Shown: positions 1 through 9,018, numbered from the stretch's first letter. The stretch: 64,000 nucleotides of DNA from Bacteroidota bacterium (GCA_022703405.1 JAKLDT010000001.1:1523-65522), one strand, 5' to 3'. Notes: generated by a model from the letters alone, not told the origin. Program-made: numbers and translations.

Positions 1-3000
1 AGCGATTCTTTCTGGAAAAATATATTCATATCCATTCTGCTGATCATGATATTGTTGAAGATATTCATTTGAGATTTGAGCGGTTATAAATTGCTTTTCA
101 TCCAATGTTGCAGTTATATTCAGAGTAGAAAGGCTAAGACTAATCAATTGACGGACTGTTTGTTCGAAATAGGGATCATTACGAAGTACTCCGCTGTTGA
201 GAAGAACCTTATCATCTATTACTGATTTTATAGAGTTTAAAGTATCACATATCTCAGTTTCACGCTTGGAAATTAAACCGCGTAATACTACTCGCTTATG
301 CACTCGGGCTAACTTTTCATCATTATTGTACACCTGCTTCAATTTAGCGTTCCGACGGTTTATTTCCCGGATTTTTTCCATTATGCCATCCATATATTTT
401 ATGCGGTCTTTAGCCTCTTGTGCAGTGGATGGTTCAATATTTTTATCCTTAAAGTATTCTCGAAACATTTTTGCTAAGGATATGAATTCCTCATCTGTTT
501 GATCAAAGTTCAAGTTGAATTCCCTCCAGGTACGCTGCCAGCATTCAGTATAATCATCACTTAACATCCGTAATTCTTCCTCTTTAACTTTTACAAATGA
601 GAAAGTAATTGTAGCCATTGCTTCATTGATAAGACCATTTATAGTATCCTGATTTTGCATTGAATTTTTAAGGTTCACTGTATCAAGCCTATGAGAAACC
701 TCACTATATAGCTCATTGACCTTAGAAATCGCAAATTTTGAAAATTGGTCTTTCAATTCCTGATCACCAAATGTCCGTACGACATTAGCCAGACTCTTAG
801 CCTGCTCAAGTGATTTCTTAATAGTCAGAAGGGTTTCCCGATCATTAATTTCATTAATCTGTTGAGAGAATTCCTCAGCATTGGTGCAACTATAGCCAAA
901 GAGGACTTCCTTAATATCCTTCATTTGTTCTATAATTTCATCGTTACTTTCAAATAAACCGGAGTAAGTTTCTATATTCTCCTCTCCTACCTCTTTTTTT
1001 AATTCTCTTAAATAGGCCTCATTTGTAGCGTCAAAAGCATCTTTAATATCTGCAAAATCAACAATGTAACCATATTTGAAATTATTGAAGGGCCTATTAA
1101 CTCGGGTGAGAGCTTGTAAAAGATTGTGATCTTTGATTTTTCGACCAAGATAGAGCTTCTTCAATCTTGGAGAATCAAAGCCTGTCAACAACATAATATT
1201 GACAATCAATATGTCAACTGATGCTTTCTTCTTGAAATCTTCAATATATCCTTTCCTGGTCTCCTTATCATCTTCATCATGCAAAATGAGTGCGCATTTC
1301 AGATGATGTTGATTCTGTTTATCATTGAAAATTTTGAACATAGTCCTTGCCTGCAGATTTGAGTCACAGACTATCATACCAGCAATTGAATTATCCCCAA
1401 AGTAAATCCGGCTTCTAATCAGATCTGCTGTAATATAGTCAAGTAAGGCTTCCACATAACGAGGATCAGCTATTATACGATCTTTCTTGATGTCACTACG
1501 CTTCAGCTGAACCTCCTCAAGTACCTTTTCAATCTCCATGCGATAATTGCTTTCTATATCCTCTCGCATTAACTTTAAGGTGTACCCGTCAGCAATTGAT
1601 TGGTTGTAGTAATATGTGTCAATGTAATCGCCAAATATCTTGCAGGAGTTCTTTTCATCCCCAATGAGAGGTGTCCCAGTCAAGGCAATTTTTATGGCAT
1701 TCGGATCAGAGTCAAACAAGTTAGCGAGGAAGCAACCATCCGGTTTATATCCTCTATGTGCTTCGTCAAGAAAATAAATGCGCTGAATGTTAATTGCGTA
1801 TTCATCCATTCTTACTTTGTGCTGATCTTCCTTAAACTTTTGGATGTTCACCACAGTTATTTCTGATTTTCCCTGCTGATTAAAAATGGAAGTTTGAGAA
1901 CGAAATTGCTCCATCAATTCAATTCTGTCGTTAACAGTATTTACTGTCAACCCTCGTTCTTCAAATTCTATCTTAGCCTGAGTAAGTAAGTCAATCCTAT
2001 CAACAATAAAATAGAACTTGGGAACAATAGGATTAGGAAGAGAGGCATAATAATCAGTCAAATACTTGACATTATAAAAGGCGAGAGCAGTTTTTCCACT
2101 TCCCTGAGTATGCCATATTATGCCAGATCTTACACCTTCTGACAACTTCCTTTTTAGTGCCAGCGTTGCGAACATTTGCTGATAACGCATTATATGCTTT
2201 TGAAGTACCTGAATATCGACCCCATCAATTTCTGTTTTTGTATCGACATAAGCAATCGCATAACGAATAATAAAAAGGAATCTCTCCTTACTAAACAGTG
2301 ACGTTATTAACCGATTTGTAGGAGTATTTACATTCTTGTTTGTCTGGTATTCGGGAGTATGTTTTATGACTGTTGCATTATTATCTGTTAGAATATAATA
2401 CTCAGTGGGGTCTTCTAATGTTAGATAGTGATAATCCTTGTAAAAATCAGCTTTGCTTTCCTCATACTTAGCTACTTTTTCTCTGAAACAATTAAATATA
2501 GCTTTGTCTTTAGCATTGGTACAATAGAAGGCCCCTTGAATCGGAACAATTGATTCGTTGTCATACTCCATATTGTTTGAAAAAAGCAGAACCTGTGACA
2601 GGTTTAGAAATCGACGAAATTTTCGATTTTTAAACCTCACATTGATTCTATCTCTTTCTGCCAGGATCCCTTCTTTATTATTAGGTTTCTTAACCTCTAT
2701 GAATGCAAGTGGCAAACCATTAATATACAGTGATATGTCAGGACGGAACTCATCTTCTCCATTTTTACAGGTAAATTCAGTTGTACATACAAAATCATTA
2801 TTTTCTACATTCTCAAAGTCAATGAGCTTAATGCCTGAATTCGTTGATAATATGCTGTAAAATTCTCTTCCTAAATCATCATTATCCAGAATAATCTTGA
2901 GTTTATCAATGAACTGATCTATTTCAATTGCTCTGAGTGAAGGGTTGAATTGATGAAGTTTGCTCTTCAGAACACTGATATTTATATTCGTGTCTGTATC

Positions 3001-3102
3001 ACAAATATCCTTAAGCTCTTTTTCTGATACATACTTATAACCCAATCGGCATAAATGAGTTAATGCTGGAATTTTGACACGTGAGTTCTCGTTAAAAGCC
3101 AT
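1..3102 (-). CDS. hsdR: Type I restriction enzyme R subunit (HsdR); the C-terminal end runs off the left window edge
   Basis: Minus-strand frame is open from the ATG at 3102 to position 1 (1034 codons, no stop, so it is absent from the supplied track). My translation shows PD-(D/E)xK nuclease motif PDISLYINGLPLAFIEVKK, Walker A TQGSGKT, DEAH box, LTGTP, LLTGFDSP and QALTRVNR, in the order typical of HsdR helicase-nucleases. Confidence 0.9.
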   Translation of the reverse strand, partial: MAFNENSRVKIPALTHLCRLGYKYVSEKELKDICDTDTNINISVLKSKLHQFNPSLRAIEIDQFIDKLKIILDNDDLGREFYSILSTNSGIKLIDFENVENNDFVCTTEFTCKNGEDEFRPDISLYINGLPLAFIEVKKPNNKEGILAERDRINVRFKNRKFRRFLNLSQVLLFSNNMEYDNESIVPIQGAFYCTNAKDKAIFNCFREKVAKYEESKADFYKDYHYLTLEDPTEYYILTDNNATVIKHTPEYQTNKNVNTPTNRLITSLFSKERFLFIIRYAIAYVDTKTEIDGVDIQVLQKHIMRYQQMFATLALKRKLSEGVRSGIIWHTQGSGKTALAFYNVKYLTDYYASLPNPIVPKFYFIVDRIDLLTQAKIEFEERGLTVNTVNDRIELMEQFRSQTSIFNQQGKSEITVVNIQKFKEDQHKVRMDEYAINIQRIYFLDEAHRGYKPDGCFLANLFDSDPNAIKIALTGTPLIGDEKNSCKIFGDYIDTYYYNQSIADGYTLKLMREDIESNYRMEIEKVLEEVQLKRSDIKKDRIIADPRYVEALLDYITADLIRSRIYFGDNSIAGMIVCDSNLQARTMFKIFNDKQNQHHLKCALILHDEDDKETRKGYIEDFKKKASVDILIVNIMLLTGFDSPRLKKLYLGRKIKDHNLLQALTRVNRPFNNFKYGYIVDFADIKDAFDATNEAYLRELKKEVGEENIETYSGLFESNDEIIEQMKDIKEVLFGYSCTNAEEFSQQINEINDRETLLTIKKSLEQAKSLANVVRTFGDQELKDQFSKFAISKVNELYSEVSHRLDTVNLKNSMQNQDTINGLINEAMATITFSFVKVKEEELRMLSDDYTECWQRTWREFNLNFDQTDEEFISLAKMFREYFKDKNIEPSTAQEAKDRIKYMDGIMEKIREINRRNAKLKQVYNNDEKLARVHKRVVLRGLISKRETEICDTLNSIKSVIDDKVLLNSGVLRNDPYFEQTVRQLISLSLSTLNITATLDEKQFITAQISNEYLQQYHDQQNGYEYIFPERIA

Positions 3103-3145
3103 ATAAATCCGATTGTATAAAAGAAGTATGAAATTAATTAAAATA

Positions 3146-3179
3146 ATAAGATATTTAAATTCATCAGACAATATCTTAT
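3146..3179. promoter_or_regulatory. Perfect 10-bp inverted repeat in the hsdR upstream region (possible operator)
   Basis: ATAAGATATT (3146-3155) and AATATCTTAT (3170-3179) are exact reverse complements with a 14-bp spacer. They lie 44-77 nt upstream of the hsdR ATG. Confidence 0.3.
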
Positions 3180-3276
3180 GTTAAAGTATTTACATTGAAA
3201 CAATATTGAAATGAATGAACTGAAATCAGTTAAATCGAATATAGTTCCTAAAACAATCGCTTGACAGGACCGGCAG

Positions 3277-3307
3277 AAAAAAAAGAGAGCACAAAACTCT
3301 CTTTTTT
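3277..3307 (-). terminator. Intrinsic terminator after the 152-aa ORF, isolating hsdR transcriptionally
   Basis: AAAAAAGAGAG / CTCTCTTTTTT stem with a 7-nt loop, directly after the stop at 3312. T-runs are present on both strands. Confidence 0.7.
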
Positions 3308-3311
3308 GGTC

Positions 3312-3770
3312 TCACCTGAGCGAAACTTCAGTAACTCCATACTTCTCTCGGATAATTTCAAGTGGTACCGGAGCCTGATTACTGGATCTGTGTTCATCCT
3401 GCCTGTAATACCAGGACATTTTGTTCGCTGAATACCTGAATCCAAGTTCTTTCAGGGTATCCTTAACCTGGAAGGTCCTCCCGGAGCACCAAAGCCATAA
3501 TCCGCATATCTCCAGGTGTAATCCCTCTGGATTAAGTCGCCCCTGTAGCTCTTTGATCTTCTCAGCAACAGTGGCTCTTTCCTTTACTACTTCTGCAGTA
3601 TCAACCGGCTCCTCTGACTGAGCTGGTGTAAGAACATTCATTAAAGTAGAATACTCAGTCCTAATTACTCTGAGCATCTCTTCCTGGCCGGTGAAAACTT
3701 TTGTAAGTTCATCGAAACGAAGTTGAACCTCTGCTGAAGAAGTGCAACCATAGAATAAATTACTTTTCAT
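3312..3770 (-). CDS. Hypothetical mobile-element protein with a W-rich C-terminal motif
   Basis: 152-aa ORF directly downstream of radC with its own terminator. The C-terminus reads ICGLWLWCSGRTFQVKDTLKELGFRYSANKMSWYY. I recall similar tails on degenerate J-domain-like proteins of plasmids and conjugative elements, but I cannot verify this. Confidence 0.5.
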   Translation of the reverse strand: MKSNLFYGCTSSAEVQLRFDELTKVFTGQEEMLRVIRTEYSTLMNVLTPAQSEEPVDTAEVVKERATVAEKIKELQGRLNPEGLHLEICGLWLWCSGRTFQVKDTLKELGFRYSANKMSWYYRQDEHRSSNQAPVPLEIIREKYGVTEVSLR

Positions 3771-3844
3771 AACATGTAAGTTTTAGTTCTGGTTAAGTGA
3801 TAATTGGTTTTAAAAAGTAAGCCATCCGGAGATGGCAAAGTTCT

Positions 3845-4315
3845 TTACAAAAGCCCGTTATCAGCAAAGCTGTAATAGTCATTTTCTGGTGAAAGAATGA
3901 GATGATCCAGTAACTGAATATCCATTATATTGCCAGCCTCTTTGAGCTTCTGAGTAATCCTTGAATCAGATTCACTCGGATTGAGATTGCCTGAGGGATG
4001 GTTATGACATACAATCAATCCTGATGCATTGCTTTTAAGGGCTGCCTGAAGAATGATCCTGACATCAGTTACAGTTCCTGATATCCCACCTTTTGAGATA
4101 GGTAAAAGACCAAGGACAGCATTAGAACGATTCATTAACAGTATCTTGAACTCTTCATAGTATTCAAGTGTACTGTCATTCCAGGACTCTCTGAAGATGT
4201 CATTGGCATCCTTTGAACAGGTTATCTTTTTACGCTGCGATGGAGGAACATTTGATTTGTAAGACAATACTACCTCGGCAACATTAAACATTGATAGTTG
4301 AATAGCGTTTTTCAT
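3845..4315 (-). CDS. radC: RadC-like JAB/MPN domain protein
   Basis: VCHNHPSGNLNPSESD matches the HxHPSG...SxxD JAB metalloprotease signature of RadC-family proteins. A terminator-like hairpin GCCATC-CGGA-GATGGC follows at about 3822-3837. Confidence 0.9.
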   Translation of the reverse strand: MKNAIQLSMFNVAEVVLSYKSNVPPSQRKKITCSKDANDIFRESWNDSTLEYYEEFKILLMNRSNAVLGLLPISKGGISGTVTDVRIILQAALKSNASGLIVCHNHPSGNLNPSESDSRITQKLKEAGNIMDIQLLDHLILSPENDYYSFADNGLL

Positions 4316-4927
4316 GATGAAACAGTTTTAAGTTTCAAAACATGAATAATTCGATGCCTCCGGATTATATATTGGGGCCCCAACTGGAACCTCAAAACAT
4401 ACCCCCCCGGTCGTTTTCTCTGCCCTACCCATTAAAGTCGTACACATTAGGTCATGGAGGCGGACCCGATAACACTGCAGACTATAGTAGCATTTAAGAA
4501 ATAAAATATGACACGGATCAACTTTAGAATTAACAAAATAACACCCCCCCGAAAACATCTATCTTCGAAATGCCATTCTTCAATTTTCCATTGCTGGACT
4601 CAATCGTTCTTTACAATTTCATCAGAAACAAGCCTGGGTTGAGCGTTTGAACGAAACCCTAAACTGAGTCTTGGAGTGCTGGAATATGAGATCTGCTATG
4701 ATTGCTTGACAGGCCAGTTAGCGGCAATTTGAGCTACTGCTTATTTCAATGTGTGTGCGTGGAAGGAAGAAGTTTCAGGCTTAGCTGCGCGGCTACTTTA
4801 TATAAAAATAGTTATAGGGCCAAAGGCCGTAGCACGAAGTGACTATAACTCTTTTTATGTAAACGGTAGACTTTGGATTTTGAGGGCTGAAGATAAGGTC
4901 TGAAACTTCTTCGCGCGAGGGCAGAAC
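4316..4927 (-). other. ~610-nt non-coding, GC-enriched block with nested hairpins (candidate structured RNA or ssDNA element)
   Basis: The only ORF is a Cys-rich 76-aa frame (4328-4558). There is a 13-bp perfect inverted repeat (4766-4778 / 4900-4912). It encloses a 14-bp stem (4804-4817 / 4843-4856, 1 mismatch), which encloses GGCC-AAA-GGCC (4818-4828). A C7/G7-containing ~17-nt motif occurs twice (4391-4410, 4533-4552). Confidence 0.35.
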
Positions 4928-5377
4928 TTACTCACAATTATTGGTTGAACTATTTACTTTGTCATCTGGGATATGAAGCACCTTTATGTTATTCAAAAGG
5001 ATTTTTCCAGTTCTCTCCTGGACTGTATTTATGATCTTCCTATGATCAAAATTTTTACTCCATTTAAATGAATAAAGTGGATTAACATAGTAGATATTGT
5101 TCTGTGCTCTCAGCATAAGTTCTGCCCTATTTAGCTCAGTTAATGCATTTCTGATTGTTTTTTCAGAATAATTCAGATGCAGGTTATGTTCACAATACTG
5201 AATATAAAAACTCATTCCATGATCACTAAAGTAGACCAGATTATCTTCTGGCCTCATAAAGGTCACAAAAACATCTAATAGATTTCTGGCTGAGGAGGAG
5301 AGTTTTGTTGTTTGCTGAAGATGGTTCGACAGATGTACTGTAGGCCACATTAATTCATTCTGAGATGAGATATTCAT
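4928..5377 (-). CDS. Hypothetical protein (possible winged-helix DNA-binding protein)
   Basis: 149-aa ORF in the unidirectional island gene string. No diagnostic motif recognised. Confidence 0.5.
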   Translation of the reverse strand: MNISSQNELMWPTVHLSNHLQQTTKLSSSARNLLDVFVTFMRPEDNLVYFSDHGMSFYIQYCEHNLHLNYSEKTIRNALTELNRAELMLRAQNNIYYVNPLYSFKWSKNFDHRKIINTVQERTGKILLNNIKVLHIPDDKVNSSTNNCE

Positions 5378-5400
5378 ATGATTACATTTCTATTTAGTTC

Positions 5401-5712
5401 CTACTTCTCTGACTTATTTGAATCAGGTAACTTTTCTAAAATACCTTTATAAATCCTCATTGTCACTCCTAACTCTTTTAATATCTCTTTTTCCCCCATT
5501 CCGGGAATAGTCTCTACAATAAAAAATACTTCCCCATTACCAATAGCTACGAATTTCTCTTCTGACTTTTTCTTCTGCTTTTTGGTGTTTAGGTTTGCTG
5601 GCTTTAAATGTTCCCTGATTTCAGGAGAATTCAGATTCTCTTTCTTTTTCATTACTTTTTTACTTTTAGATTTTATAATTATTATTTCTGTGCCGCAGAT
5701 ACTTACTCTCAT
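5401..5712 (-). CDS. Hypothetical small basic protein
   Basis: 103-aa ORF. The true start is more likely the internal MKKKEN (about 5652). It has a Lys-rich N-terminus and a possible HTH near the C-terminus (EKEILKELGVTMRIYKGIL). Confidence 0.45.
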   Translation of the reverse strand: MRVSICGTEIIIIKSKSKKVMKKKENLNSPEIREHLKPANLNTKKQKKKSEEKFVAIGNGEVFFIVETIPGMGEKEILKELGVTMRIYKGILEKLPDSNKSEK

Positions 5713-5730
5713 CTGAATATTATATATCTA

Positions 5731-6507
5731 CTAAAGCCAATCATCTTTTATACTTTTTGCATCAATTGTTTCATTTTCTATAAATTGATCATACTTCTCC
5801 GGCATTTCTACTTTTTCCCTGGAAATGGTAAAAACTTTTTCATCCTGCATATTTGGATCATCATCAATTTCAGATTGAAATTCTTCTTCTAACAGATATT
5901 GTGACTTTGAAATTTCACTTATTACTTTCCCTAATCTTTCTCTTGTTTCTGGATCTATTCCTTGACCTGTATCCATCATCTGGATTTGATCTTGCTCAGA
6001 ATCTTCATTCTTATTAGCAGATAATGGATTTAGCTCAGATATTTCTTTATTGTTATTATTTGTTGTATCCTTTATATCCTCAATATCCTTTATATCATTT
6101 CCTTTATATATAGCACCATTCTTAAATGCGTTTGGATTGCTGTCGCAATCGATTAAAAGATCATTTGATTTTTTACTCCATCTTTTTATTGCTGATTGTC
6201 TTGCAGATTCGGTTTTCTTCTTTCGAACCTCGAGTCTTCTTTCAATACTTTGTGAGCTAAAAAAGTCATTCTTGATAACGAATAGATCAAAATCATTTAC
6301 TATACTTTTAACTATGTCATCATCCGTCCGCAAATCAAATGCAATGTCATCATAGTCCGTTCGCATTGCGTTTGCATTATTATATAAATCCTCAACAATG
6401 GACCAGAATATTCCATATCCAGTCATTCCATACTTCTTAAGAAGTCTCTTTATCTTTTCATCAGTTCTTGCATTGTAGTCATGCGAAAAATAATACGTCT
6501 CTTTCAT
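5731..6507 (-). CDS. DUF4373-like (Lin1244/Lin1753-type, replisome-organiser-like) protein
   Basis: From the internal start MKETYYFSHDYNARTDEKIKRLLKKYGMTGYGIFWSIVEDLY, which resembles the N-terminal DUF4373 signature (YFxHDxNAxxDxK...GYGxYW). The track ORF extends to 6585, but that N-terminal extension looks non-native. Confidence 0.6.
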   Translation of the reverse strand: MKETYYFSHDYNARTDEKIKRLLKKYGMTGYGIFWSIVEDLYNNANAMRTDYDDIAFDLRTDDDIVKSIVNDFDLFVIKNDFFSSQSIERRLEVRKKKTESARQSAIKRWSKKSNDLLIDCDSNPNAFKNGAIYKGNDIKDIEDIKDTTNNNNKEISELNPLSANKNEDSEQDQIQMMDTGQGIDPETRERLGKVISEISKSQYLLEEEFQSEIDDDPNMQDEKVFTISREKVEMPEKYDQFIENETIDAKSIKDDWL

Positions 6508-6592
6508 ATTCCTGGCTTTTAAAGGCATCCATCCGGGATTATCAGGAACCTGACTTGCGGTCAGGCGTCCCGGATGGTGCCTCATATTGTTA

Positions 6593-6874
6593 TTATTCTG
6601 TCCTTAATCTTTTATATTTGAGAGTCGTTGCGTCCTGAATGGCAGCTTTAATATCAGATTCGAGATACAACATTCTTGTGCCAATTTTACTTCCCTTTAT
6701 TATGCCTTTTTTAGTATAGGTATTTAAAGTTGGCATACTGACCTTAAGAATTGTACATACCTCTTCTCGGGAGAGATACTTTAGATCAATATCCTCTTTC
6801 TTGAGGTTAAGGTCGATCAGCCGGTTTTCAATGCTGGTCAGCCTTAAGTTAATTTCTTCAAATGGATTTGACAT
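6593..6874 (-). CDS. Excisionase/MerR-type helix-turn-helix DNA-binding protein
   Basis: LSREEVCTILKVSMPTLNTYTKKGIIKGSKIGTRMLY is typical of HTH_17/excisionase-family proteins. It lies two genes from the integrase. Confidence 0.7.
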   Translation of the reverse strand: MSNPFEEINLRLTSIENRLIDLNLKKEDIDLKYLSREEVCTILKVSMPTLNTYTKKGIIKGSKIGTRMLYLESDIKAAIQDATTLKYKRLRTE

Positions 6875-6943
6875 ATTGCAACAGGTTTAAATTCTGGTGC
6901 AATTTATTATCAGGGAAATCCGGTTACTGGTTATTTCTGGTAA

Positions 6944-7651
6944 CTATTTTTTAAATATATCATTCTCAATATTGAATTTTAGCTTCATTAGATCTTTTTC
7001 AGCACGGTCTTTTGCATCCCCGGAGAGTTCTTTTATGACTTTCTCAAATAGTTTTATTTTATTCTTATTCTTTAATTCTGAACTTTCAGCACCTATTCTA
7101 TCAATCAGATTAACATACCCCAGATAAATTATATATAGTTTGCCTTTACCTTTTTTAATAATCTCATTTCTATAAATAGACAATAAAGCAAGTTCAGCAT
7201 TTGTCTTTTGTCCTTTAAGGTAATTATTTAACCACAATAGATATCTACAATAGACTAAAGCTAAACTATAGAAAAGTCTTCTATCTGTTAAATAATCTGG
7301 CACAAAATCATTTAGCTTATAAAACCAATCATCCCAGTCATTTTCTTCTAATTCATCAATATTATTATTGTTTACAATAAAATGAATCCAGAACTTTCTA
7401 ATCAACCATATCTGCATACTGTTGAACTCTGGAACTGAATAATCTTCAAGCGGTTCGTCATCGTGTGAAAGTATTGGTAAGGGCAACTTATCCTCATCAA
7501 AAAGTAATGAATAGCCCTTGATTTCCCTTGCTAAGAGTTCTTTCTTTCCTCTACTATTTTGATACCTGACGTTAAAATCATCCTTTAATTTCTGAAGTCT
7601 TATGGCTTCATCTTTAGTCAAAATAATATCTTCAATGCTCATATCATACAA
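6944..7651 (-). CDS. Hypothetical protein, overlaps the integrase stop by 8 nt
   Basis: 235-aa ORF. Its start overlaps the end of the integrase gene (7644-7651), which suggests co-transcription. No recognisable motif. Confidence 0.55.
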   Translation of the reverse strand: MYDMSIEDIILTKDEAIRLQKLKDDFNVRYQNSRGKKELLAREIKGYSLLFDEDKLPLPILSHDDEPLEDYSVPEFNSMQIWLIRKFWIHFIVNNNNIDELEENDWDDWFYKLNDFVPDYLTDRRLFYSLALVYCRYLLWLNNYLKGQKTNAELALLSIYRNEIIKKGKGKLYIIYLGYVNLIDRIGAESSELKNKNKIKLFEKVIKELSGDAKDRAEKDLMKLKFNIENDIFKK

Positions 7652-8987
7652 CTTTTAATTTTGTTTTGAAATATGGATGATTAGCAAGTTTTACGGCAGT
7701 CTCTTCTTTACTTATCCGAACATATTTCAAGAATTCTTTTGGTGTCCGGTGTCCACTGATCTTCATAATGTCTACTATTGGAATTCCAGCGAGATACATA
7801 AGGGTGACTCCAGTGCGTCTTGCACAATGAGTTGATATCAAATCACATTTCTTTACATTTAATTTTTTAATCATCCCACCTTTGTTCTTTTCGGTATGAA
7901 TCAACTCAGTAATCCCTGCTTTGGCTCCGATCTTTTTAATTGCTTTATTAACCTTTTGTTCGAATGACTTGGGTAAGTTGTAATCATATCTTTGAAGAAT
8001 TACTTCTAATTCTGGTCGGATTGGGATGATACATTTTTCACCAGTCTTCTTTTGAATCAATTCAATGTACTTTGTTCCACTAATTTCTTTAATGTTTGAT
8101 TTATTCAGTTTTGAGTAATCAGAATATCGTTGAGCGGTATAGCAGCCTGCAAGGAATACATCACGTACTTCCTGGTAGTGCTTATTATCACTTAGATCCA
8201 ACTCATAAAGGTTCTTCAACTCTGACTCAGTTAAATAAATGTGTTCCACTTCCTCAGACAGGGTTTTAAAGGCCTTTCTTTCTATTTCCATATTGCTGTG
8301 CAGACCTTCTTCCCTGGCAGATCTCATTATGGTTTTAAAACTCTTTATGTGTTTTCCAATATAGTTGGATCCACATCCACGTCCATAAAAGAATTCAACA
8401 AATTCATTGTAGATATCAATTGATATATCATTCCAATTCAGTGGCTTATAAGGCCTTTGGGGATATACTTTGGCTCCCTTACGTGGTTTAATGCCTTCAT
8501 TCTCTATGCCCTGGAATGTATTGAAGGTCAACATAAACCCCCTTAGAACCCGTAGTGAGCCATAACTATATTTCTTTTTAGTGTTCCCGGAATTAGCAAG
8601 GCGTTTTCCACTTGTTGCCTCATCCACAAACCTTTTAATGTATTCGTTCAATGTTTCTATTGAAGCTGGCTCCCTATAGTAGAAATCATCAATTACACCT
8701 TTTAACCATTCAGCCGTTGGTGTGGTAGTCAGTTTAAAAGATTCTCTGAGGATAGCATCTTTAAGCTGTGAAAACTTGTCCTGTATATCTTTAGCCTGGT
8801 CCTGAGTTATTTCCTCAGTAAACAGGATATTGGGCTTAAGTCTTTGAGCCTTTTCATTCCAATATGATGGATAAAGTCTATAAGGAGTTAGGAGGCGGAT
8901 TTTGATGTCAGTACCATCCTGGAAGCAGACATAAACTGAAGCCAGCTTATTCACCTTTGATCGGACATAGAATCTTATGGTTGCCAT
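7644..8987 (-). CDS. Tyrosine site-specific integrase (Bacteroidetes type with N-terminal arm-binding domain)
   Basis: Catalytic-region motifs TAQRYSD, HCARRTGVT, SGHRTPKEFLKYV (R...HxxR...H...Y). The N-terminus MATIRFYVRSKVNKLASVYV is typical of the arm DNA-binding domain of this integrase class. Confidence 0.9.
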   Translation of the reverse strand: MATIRFYVRSKVNKLASVYVCFQDGTDIKIRLLTPYRLYPSYWNEKAQRLKPNILFTEEITQDQAKDIQDKFSQLKDAILRESFKLTTTPTAEWLKGVIDDFYYREPASIETLNEYIKRFVDEATSGKRLANSGNTKKKYSYGSLRVLRGFMLTFNTFQGIENEGIKPRKGAKVYPQRPYKPLNWNDISIDIYNEFVEFFYGRGCGSNYIGKHIKSFKTIMRSAREEGLHSNMEIERKAFKTLSEEVEHIYLTESELKNLYELDLSDNKHYQEVRDVFLAGCYTAQRYSDYSKLNKSNIKEISGTKYIELIQKKTGEKCIIPIRPELEVILQRYDYNLPKSFEQKVNKAIKKIGAKAGITELIHTEKNKGGMIKKLNVKKCDLISTHCARRTGVTLMYLAGIPIVDIMKISGHRTPKEFLKYVRISKEETAVKLANHPYFKTKLKVV

Positions 8988-9018
8988 AGGCTATAATAGT
9001 TTTCACTAAAGATACAAC

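Follow-up and report, generated by a model that had tools for sequence, protein, structure and literature searches.

A conserved, covarying hairpin element that precedes radC in a Bacteroidales island family and matches no catalogued RNA family

Since 2010, structured non-coding motifs that precede radC and anti-restriction genes have entered the catalogues without an assigned function. In mobile DNA the radC motif is found before integrase, methylase and anti-restriction genes too, and Pedo-repair is linked to radC-type genes. Hairpins are also found among the single-strand origins of the ssoA type, which are orientation-specific, imperfect hairpins of ~150 nt that behave as modules with respect to the Rep gene. 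Weinberg et al. 2010 (PMC2864571) describe structured motifs upstream of radC-type genes and list Enterobacteriales as hosts of STAXI, Proteobacteria as hosts of the radC motif and Pedobacter as the host of Pedo-repair; there the authors of STAXI themselves raised the question of whether it acts as RNA or as single-stranded DNA (ssDNA). Some plasmid hairpins in such a position are single-strand promoters, from which anti-defence genes fire before the DNA becomes double-stranded, and in enterobacterial plasmids hairpin classes of ssDNA promoters have been described that precede ardA, klcA, ssb and a methylase gene (PMC12672017; PMC11541004). Here we describe a structured element upstream of radC in Bacteroidales islands and compare it with these systems.

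The DNA analysed is a 64-kb stretch from a Bacteroidota bacterium, called the window hereafter, whose closest relatives are Bacteroidales MAGs. The window corresponds to the reverse complement of the JGI metagenome contig Ga0116241_10000689. It carries an island in which all genes are co-directional, on the minus strand, from the integrase end to the HsdR end. The tyrosine integrase gene (7644-8987) is followed by a hypothetical gene and an HTH_17 excisionase-like gene, by a Lin1244_N replication initiator gene (5731-6585) and by two small ORFs, the second of which (4928-5377) encodes a 149-aa HTH-like protein. Then come a gene-free gap of 612 nt (4316-4927), radC (3845-4315), encoding a 156-aa protein with a RadC-like JAB domain (Pfam PF04002, E = 1.7e-37), a gene for a 152-aa protein and the type I restriction gene HsdR. 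The remaining intergenic gaps of the island in the window are all short. An earlier reading of this region, made from the sequence alone, had placed the gap 5' of radC and a possible anti-restriction-type gene, close to an integrase; the integrase and RadC were confirmed, and the gene 5' of the gap encodes the small HTH-like protein and is not recognisable as anti-restriction. Directly 3' of radC, on the minus strand, a terminator-like hairpin (GCCATCTCCGGATGGC) with a T-rich tail was observed at 3821-3836, suggesting that radC is the end of a transcription unit.

The sequence-only reading had described the gap as a structured, GC-enriched non-coding block holding several repeats. Every one of these repeats is present, namely the 13-bp perfect inverted repeat (4766-4778 / 4900-4912), GGCC-AAA-GGCC (4818-4828), GGGTT...AACCC (4636-4640 / 4655-4659), the GGGGCCCC palindrome (4375-4382) and the C7 motif, which occurs twice (4394-4409 and 4536-4551). 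The inner stem is also real and longer than had been proposed, with arms of 21 nt (4797-4817 / 4843-4863) and 90% complementarity. Among 500 dinucleotide shuffles of the gap, 3 contained a perfect inverted repeat of at least 13 bp. The 16-nt C7 motif is the sole direct repeat in 4200-5000 (two copies, 142 nt apart), and the only two C/G runs of at least 7 in the whole 64-kb window both fall in the gap (4402-4408 and 4544-4550). The idea of a structured block of 612 nt did not hold, however, as the whole gap folds like its shuffles (z = +0.03 and -0.36) and the structure signal is limited to about 4756-4922. The GC enrichment is true with respect to the neighbouring island genes (0.34-0.39), but the gap (0.422) does not stand out against the window mean (0.408), and its GC content is matched or exceeded by 43% of 612-nt segments. 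The motifs first listed belong to at least three separate units of the gap.

The structured unit, which we call E1, is 167 nt long (4756-4922, minus strand; 174.6 bits with covariance model R1) and lies at the distal end of the gap, with the stop codon of the 149-aa HTH-like gene 6 nt from it. Read on the radC-sense strand, it is composed of an outer clamp (P1/P1b), an asymmetric internal loop, an inner hairpin of ~28 bp and a three-way tip. The 5' flank, (G)CCNUCGCGC, is conserved. The arms of P1, GAAGAAGUUUCAG on the 5' side (4900-4912, minus strand) and CUGAAACUUCUUC on the 3' side (4766-4778, minus strand), are the two halves of the 13-bp inverted repeat; inside this clamp come the P1b helix of ~6 bp and the internal loop, whose 5' strand has ~27 nt, rich in C and A, and whose 3' strand has ~10 nt (CCGCNCAG). 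The core inner hairpin (4793-4869, minus strand) begins with a base helix that varies between loci (CUAC/GUAG, GCUAU/AUAGC, GCAAU/AUUGC, CCUGG/CCAGG) and contains a near-invariant box, UU(G/U)ACAUAA / UUAU(G/A)U(C/A)AA, above which are a covarying middle part and then UUAUAG/CUAUAA. The tip carries two small minus-strand hairpins, P3b (4818-4828, GGCC UUU GGCC), whose stem covaries (GGCC, GCCC/GGGC, UGC/GCA, GCC/GGC), and P3a (4833-4841, CAC UUC GUG); the tip triloops read U-N-C on the sense strand in 6 of 7 cases, which is G-N-A on the other strand. Folded as RNA and compared with shuffles, the segment 4765-4913 had z = -4.6 (minus strand) and -5.7 (plus strand), and folding it with DNA parameters gave -30.1 (+) and -24.4 (-) kcal/mol, with z about -6 on both strands. 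Over both strands and with RNA or DNA parameters, z for E1 ranged from -4.6 to -6.3. The minimum-energy fold of the sense strand is the consensus structure, and its unpaired segments are C/A-rich.

To collect homologues, relatives of RadC were located in one genome per species and then by protein search and exact-protein look-ups, and copies of E1 were found with nhmmer and model R1. E1 is present in ten distinct loci (the window, L005, L011, L018, L166, L176, L177/L206, L198, L199 and L207), with R1 scores of 70-168 bits in the nine besides the window. In all ten, it lies on the radC strand in the same orientation, 212-930 nt upstream of a PF04002 radC gene, and the radC gene is inside an integrase-bearing island; other close radC loci, such as L004/L187, do not have E1. 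A pattern scan of metagenomes gave three true matches, L166, L169 (identical to the window) and L172 (partial). Among viral contigs, two specific DNA patterns produced chance matches or none, and an AT-rich two-arm pattern was non-specific (>120 chance matches). A blastn search with the gap found no match in PLSDB plasmids or phages.

We fitted a ten-sequence alignment to model R1. Standard base pairs occupy 89.8% of the aligned predicted-stem positions, compared with 37-47% in slid controls, and 18 of the 44 pairs show changes on both sides; none of 500 shuffles reached any of the measures. The same helices were already visible in plain MAFFT/RNAalifold alignments of four or five sequences. 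P1 is present in seven of the ten copies and is compensated in L176, where it reads AGGAAGUUCAG/CUGAACUUCCU. The three copies without P1 (L018, L199 and L198) retain the inner hairpin, found in 10/10 homologues, which identifies the inner hairpin as the core of the element. E1 is a genuine, uncatalogued, covariation-supported cis-element of a Bacteroidales island family; the suggestion of the sequence-only reading that the region may be an undescribed cis-element of the island family is supported for these distal 167 nt.

The same alignment bears on whether E1 might be a palindromic remnant, selfish or neutral, for instance a MITE-like insertion or a scar of module shuffling, or a decayed gene. 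The 13-bp terminal inverted repeats and the size of ~150 nt are MITE-like, and P1 is missing in three of the ten copies. Against this, E1 is single-copy and keeps a constant place, with one copy in the window and one per related locus (about 0.5 Mb searched), its compensatory changes are spread across divergent copies, and there are no direct repeats in the aligned flanks. Nor was any conserved frame or Pfam match found, and we regard an origin of this kind as very improbable. The absence of a credible ORF from the gap of the window was confirmed, its 76-aa frame having no Pfam match. A six-frame comparison of homologous gaps gave short matches in several frames on both strands, indicating conservation at the nucleotide rather than the protein level. 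A decayed protein-coding gene is not supported, since no frame is conserved and neither the 76-aa ORF nor the ORFs over E1 match Pfam. Public gene calls run across E1 at L199:1866-2249 (127 aa) and L207:2331-2789 (152 aa), without a family match; these ORFs are not kept as frames and are probably false calls caused by the stop-free structured region.

The islands with E1 have a common order of integrase, small gene, HTH_17 gene, replication module, gap with E1 and radC, followed by small genes and then variable cargo; this layout was seen, for example, in the window (1-9000), L206 (4508-20468) and L176. Homologues of the 149-aa HTH-like gene sit before E1 in L176 and L166. The replication module is exchangeable: some islands have Lin1244_N, others have a DUF5906 helicase and a BT4734/PriCT_2 primase, and the remainder have unknown proteins. 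The cargo is mostly of the defence type (type I R-M; an HD protein; an S8 peptidase and AAA; Vsr, Dcm and a helicase). No relaxase or transfer genes were found within 20 kb of L206 or in the other E1 loci.

The sequence-only reading had named the STAXI and radC RNA motifs and hairpin single-strand promoters as possible explanations. When the window and about 45 related loci were searched with Rfam 15 at gathering and permissive thresholds, only tRNAs were found. Neither STAXI nor the radC motif had a gathering-score match in the window or a match at E<=10 within 3700-5500, and both are absent from all related loci searched; the radC motif (RF01754) had no match in 40 related radC loci, and Pedo-repair (RF01715) none in the window or in the Pedobacter radC loci searched. 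The radC motif resembles E1 as a conserved structured non-coding element upstream of radC, but it is unrelated in sequence and architecture and is listed for Proteobacteria only. STAXI (RF01728) has a similar setting, being associated with ssb, anti-restriction and integrase genes, but it is a short pseudoknot in 2-3 tandem units, whereas E1 is a single nested hairpin without tandem units. Pedo-repair shares the phylum Bacteroidota with E1 but is restricted to Pedobacter. The idea that STAXI is itself the ssDNA promoter of the ardA/klcA type was rejected, as the F leading region has no Rfam match to STAXI.

The Frpo/ssi hairpins (F, ColIb-P9, pESBL, classes 1-3) are large, imperfectly paired hairpins that precede establishment and anti-restriction genes, with several sequence-unrelated classes existing side by side, and they are strand-specific. 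E1 is likewise predicted to form a long imperfect hairpin from one DNA strand. However, Frpo/ssi lie directly upstream of an operon in the leading region by oriT, whereas as much as 930 nt can separate E1 from radC. Their stems also rebuild -35/-10 boxes of the sigma-70 type, which E1 does not have. [quoted passage not shown] The ssoA-type origins resemble E1 in that one box of the stem and one unpaired stretch are conserved, but E1 appears to lack an RSB or CS-6 (TAGCGT) motif, and its islands carry theta-type or primase-helicase replication genes where ssoA plasmids carry a rolling-circle Rep. In its setting E1 parallels the radC and STAXI motifs as well as the Frpo/ssi hairpins, without belonging to any of them. 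Other candidates were also rejected: an intrinsic terminator, as there is no terminator-like site in 4316-4927 on either strand, and, on context alone, a retron ncRNA (no reverse transcriptase), an attC site (no attC R-boxes), an IS110 bridge RNA (no IS110 recombinase) and the att site of the island itself, as about 2.7 kb separate E1 from the integrase gene.

Bacteroidales mobile elements repeatedly carry long hairpins before establishment-type genes. More distant radC genes (63-70% identity) have, 110-270 nt upstream, a second type of nested hairpin with a sequence unrelated to E1, which is found in six loci (L008, at 3731-3900, L009, L010, L012, L013 and L016). In this type 12 of 56 pairs are compensated, a U.G pair on the sense strand is invariant, and in most copies two T-run terminator hairpins follow before the radC ATG; a blastn search against plasmids gave no match. 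A third type, long imperfect hairpins without an Rfam match, was found in a conjugative transposon of Bacteroides ovatus, once before radC/JAB and once before ardA (L208:6847-6959 and L208:7556-7690), and in one of Prevotella nigrescens before the pcfK/pcfJ operon (L210:~3458-3575). In the third type the tip, GAAAATCTCCACACCT(A/G)CGGGT(A/C)GTATTT, is invariant and on the gene-sense strand folds into a C(UNCG)G tetraloop, while the outer stems are entirely different in sequence among the copies; each copy comes after the terminator of the preceding gene. In Bacteroides finegoldii (L209:6125-6988), an integrase and three hypothetical genes are followed by an 865-nt gene-free gap and JAB/radC, and this gap contains a nested hairpin of ~150 nt, from 6495, with yet another sequence.

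The part of the gap between E1 and radC is composed of different units. The spacer (about 4467-4755) is poorly conserved except for a hairpin at 4636-4659 (minus strand), in which GGGUU/AACCC enclose a 3-bp stem and a 4-nt loop (fold z = -1.8); in alignment it is conserved in a few close relatives only, with a GCAA tetraloop in two loci. The distal G7 motif (4536-4551, minus strand; C7 on the plus strand) is specific to the window and partly common with L011. Next to radC is block 2 (4350-4466, minus strand), which was found by nhmmer at a fixed place, -150..-35 from radC, in 14 distinct loci. Its layout is AACCUAAU .. AAAACGA .. a run of 5-7 G (4402-4408) .. GGGG(N)CCC (4375-4382) .. AAGUUAUUC, the start and the finish being also written AACCTAAT and AAGTTATTC; it has little consensus secondary structure and, with its G-run and the palindrome, occurs also at loci without E1. 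Although the length of the proximal G-run varies between loci (5-7 G), phase variation at the G7 run was rejected because contigs from different samples are identical across the gap. Finally, a 6-bp hairpin, UGAAAC .. GUUUCA (4318-4337, minus strand), appears in the consensus fold abutting the radC start codon. Five of its six pairs change on both sides in some locus, and its distance from radC is constant in 14 loci, not all of which have E1. Block 2 probably holds radC's own promoter, and together with the start-codon hairpin it may be the promoter and translation-control region of radC.

Among signals of transcription, a conserved Bacteroidetes promoter (TAnnTTTG) was found neither in the gaps nor upstream of E1, and the arms and flanks of E1 contain no TAnnTTTG, TTTG or Bacteroidetes -33/-7 boxes. 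TTGACA is present in the P2 box of several copies, yet no -10 hexamer follows 16-18 bp on. Between the 5' gene and radC, neither the window nor three homologous loci showed any terminator. Just upstream of E1, within the end of the 149-aa gene, the minus strand at 4937-4965 contains a sigma-70-like ATGACA-17-AATAAT (10/12) and a near-consensus Bacteroidetes -7 box, TAATTGTG; these promoter-like matches are not conserved in the other loci.

As the genes are co-directional, with no terminator and no canonical promoter, read-through on the sense strand is the default expectation. Our preferred reading, held tentatively and at somewhat under an even chance, is that E1 is a cis-acting structured RNA, a sense-strand platform in the radC leader or intercistronic region. 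E1 would be made within a radC-sense transcript running from the replication module into radC, and its RNA would fold into the 13-bp clamp, the ~28-bp hairpin and the three-way tip. It would most likely act as a protein-binding or processing platform, which could control the radC-module mRNA through its 5' end, its stability or its read-through, while block 2 and the start-codon hairpin would tune initiation at radC. We infer the transcription of E1, RNA as its active form and this role from several lines of evidence. The ten copies have a constant strand and position and strong covariation, the unpaired segments of the sense strand are C/A-rich, and the minimum-energy fold of that strand coincides with the consensus. 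The sister elements and the spacer hairpin bear marks of the RNA type (U.G, UNCG, GCAA and terminators), and there is the precedent of structured motifs before radC-type genes (PMC2864571).

Some observations disfavour a simple RNA. Mismatches in the modelled pairs of E1 in a 9-sequence alignment comprise 13 G.U and 9 A.C, the latter rising to 13 with the four C.A of an unmodelled pair (columns 64/147), and in the inner hairpin alone there are 7 G.U and 10 A.C, whereas an RNA acting from one strand normally shows a clear excess of G.U. The tips read C-GNA-G on the other strand, while U-N-C is unremarkable in RNA. An RNA reading is further disfavoured by the absence of a conserved promoter upstream of E1 and by the distance of 212-930 nt to radC, and also by block 2, which lies between E1 and radC and is present without E1 as well. 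On the plus strand, exact GCGAAGC, a classic stable DNA mini-hairpin, occurs in L011, in L207 and in an insertion of L005/L177 (four loci).

The free energy is lower on the plus strand in 10/10 copies, which, together with the GNA triloops carried by that strand, could point to an antisense small RNA encoded by E1 on the plus strand of the window. The energy advantage is attributable to base composition, however, since the z-scores are similar on both strands, and no promoter or terminator was found on the plus strand. The unpaired regions of such an RNA would be G/U-rich, and no target is suggested nearby. We consider an antisense RNA quite improbable, even more so than the DNA-site reading discussed last.

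Alternatively, E1 may work as folded ssDNA on the template (+) strand of radC, as an initiation site of the ssi/Frpo/sso kind or an oriT-type hairpin. It would then serve the entry of the island or its ssDNA replication, priming the complementary strand and/or early transcription of the radC region. The plus-strand tips, C-GNA-G with N being any of the four bases, and exact GCGAAGC in four loci agree with this possibility, as does the balance of G.U and A.C, which lacks a wobble signature of the RNA type. E1 is kept despite differing replication modules, which is how host-dependent ssi/sso modules behave, and the co-oriented layout from integrase to defence cargo without a relaxase resembles oriT-only 'hitcher' islands, in which defence and counter-defence genes cluster by oriT (bioRxiv 10.64898/2026.01.13.699239). 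In enterobacterial plasmids, sequence-unrelated hairpin classes set a precedent as ssDNA promoters, and here three sequence-unrelated hairpin families precede radC, ardA or pcfK. On the other hand, up to 20 kb of sequence contained no relaxase or transfer genes and no recognisable oriT, the stems have neither Bacteroidetes -33/-7 boxes nor correctly spaced sigma-70 boxes, and there is no similarity to the F leading region. E1 is also 212-930 nt away from radC instead of immediately before it, the sister families have their RNA-type marks on the gene-sense strand, and the folding z-scores favour neither strand. We regard folded ssDNA as the main rival of the RNA reading and as somewhat less likely than it.

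The symmetry of the mismatch statistics between the strands is also what a site in double-stranded DNA would show, serving replication or maintenance as part of an origin, a cruciform or a protein-binding palindrome. E1 lies in the only large non-coding stretch of the island, just 3' of the replication genes, and in all loci it is downstream of genes for a replication initiator or a primase; in addition, the box TTGACATAAT/ATTATGTCAA hardly varies, suggesting sequence-specific recognition. However, we found no iterons or DnaA-box-like sites, E1 is kept though the replication proteins differ, and half-sites 45-60 bp apart are unsuited to a dimeric DNA-binding protein. The compensatory changes along a stem of ~40 bp instead indicate selection on an extruded hairpin, and a double-stranded site is improbable.

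To the catalogued motifs our results add an element whose helices are defined and supported by covariation and whose box hardly varies, along with two sister families from Bacteroidales mobile elements with defence cargo. If E1 is only a leader RNA, it would be a useful but ordinary entry in the catalogue of RNA families. A further interpretation, which we rate as rather unlikely, is that E1 and its two sister families are the Bacteroidota counterpart of ssDNA promoters or initiation sites; the hairpins would fold on the incoming ssDNA and recruit a polymerase that does not use boxes of the sigma-70 type. If this were true, a mechanism shown so far only in enterobacterial plasmids would extend to the main gut phylum, and it would reach islands without transfer genes of their own. 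The choice between an RNA leader and an ssDNA signal is now directly testable in a phylum with different promoter rules.
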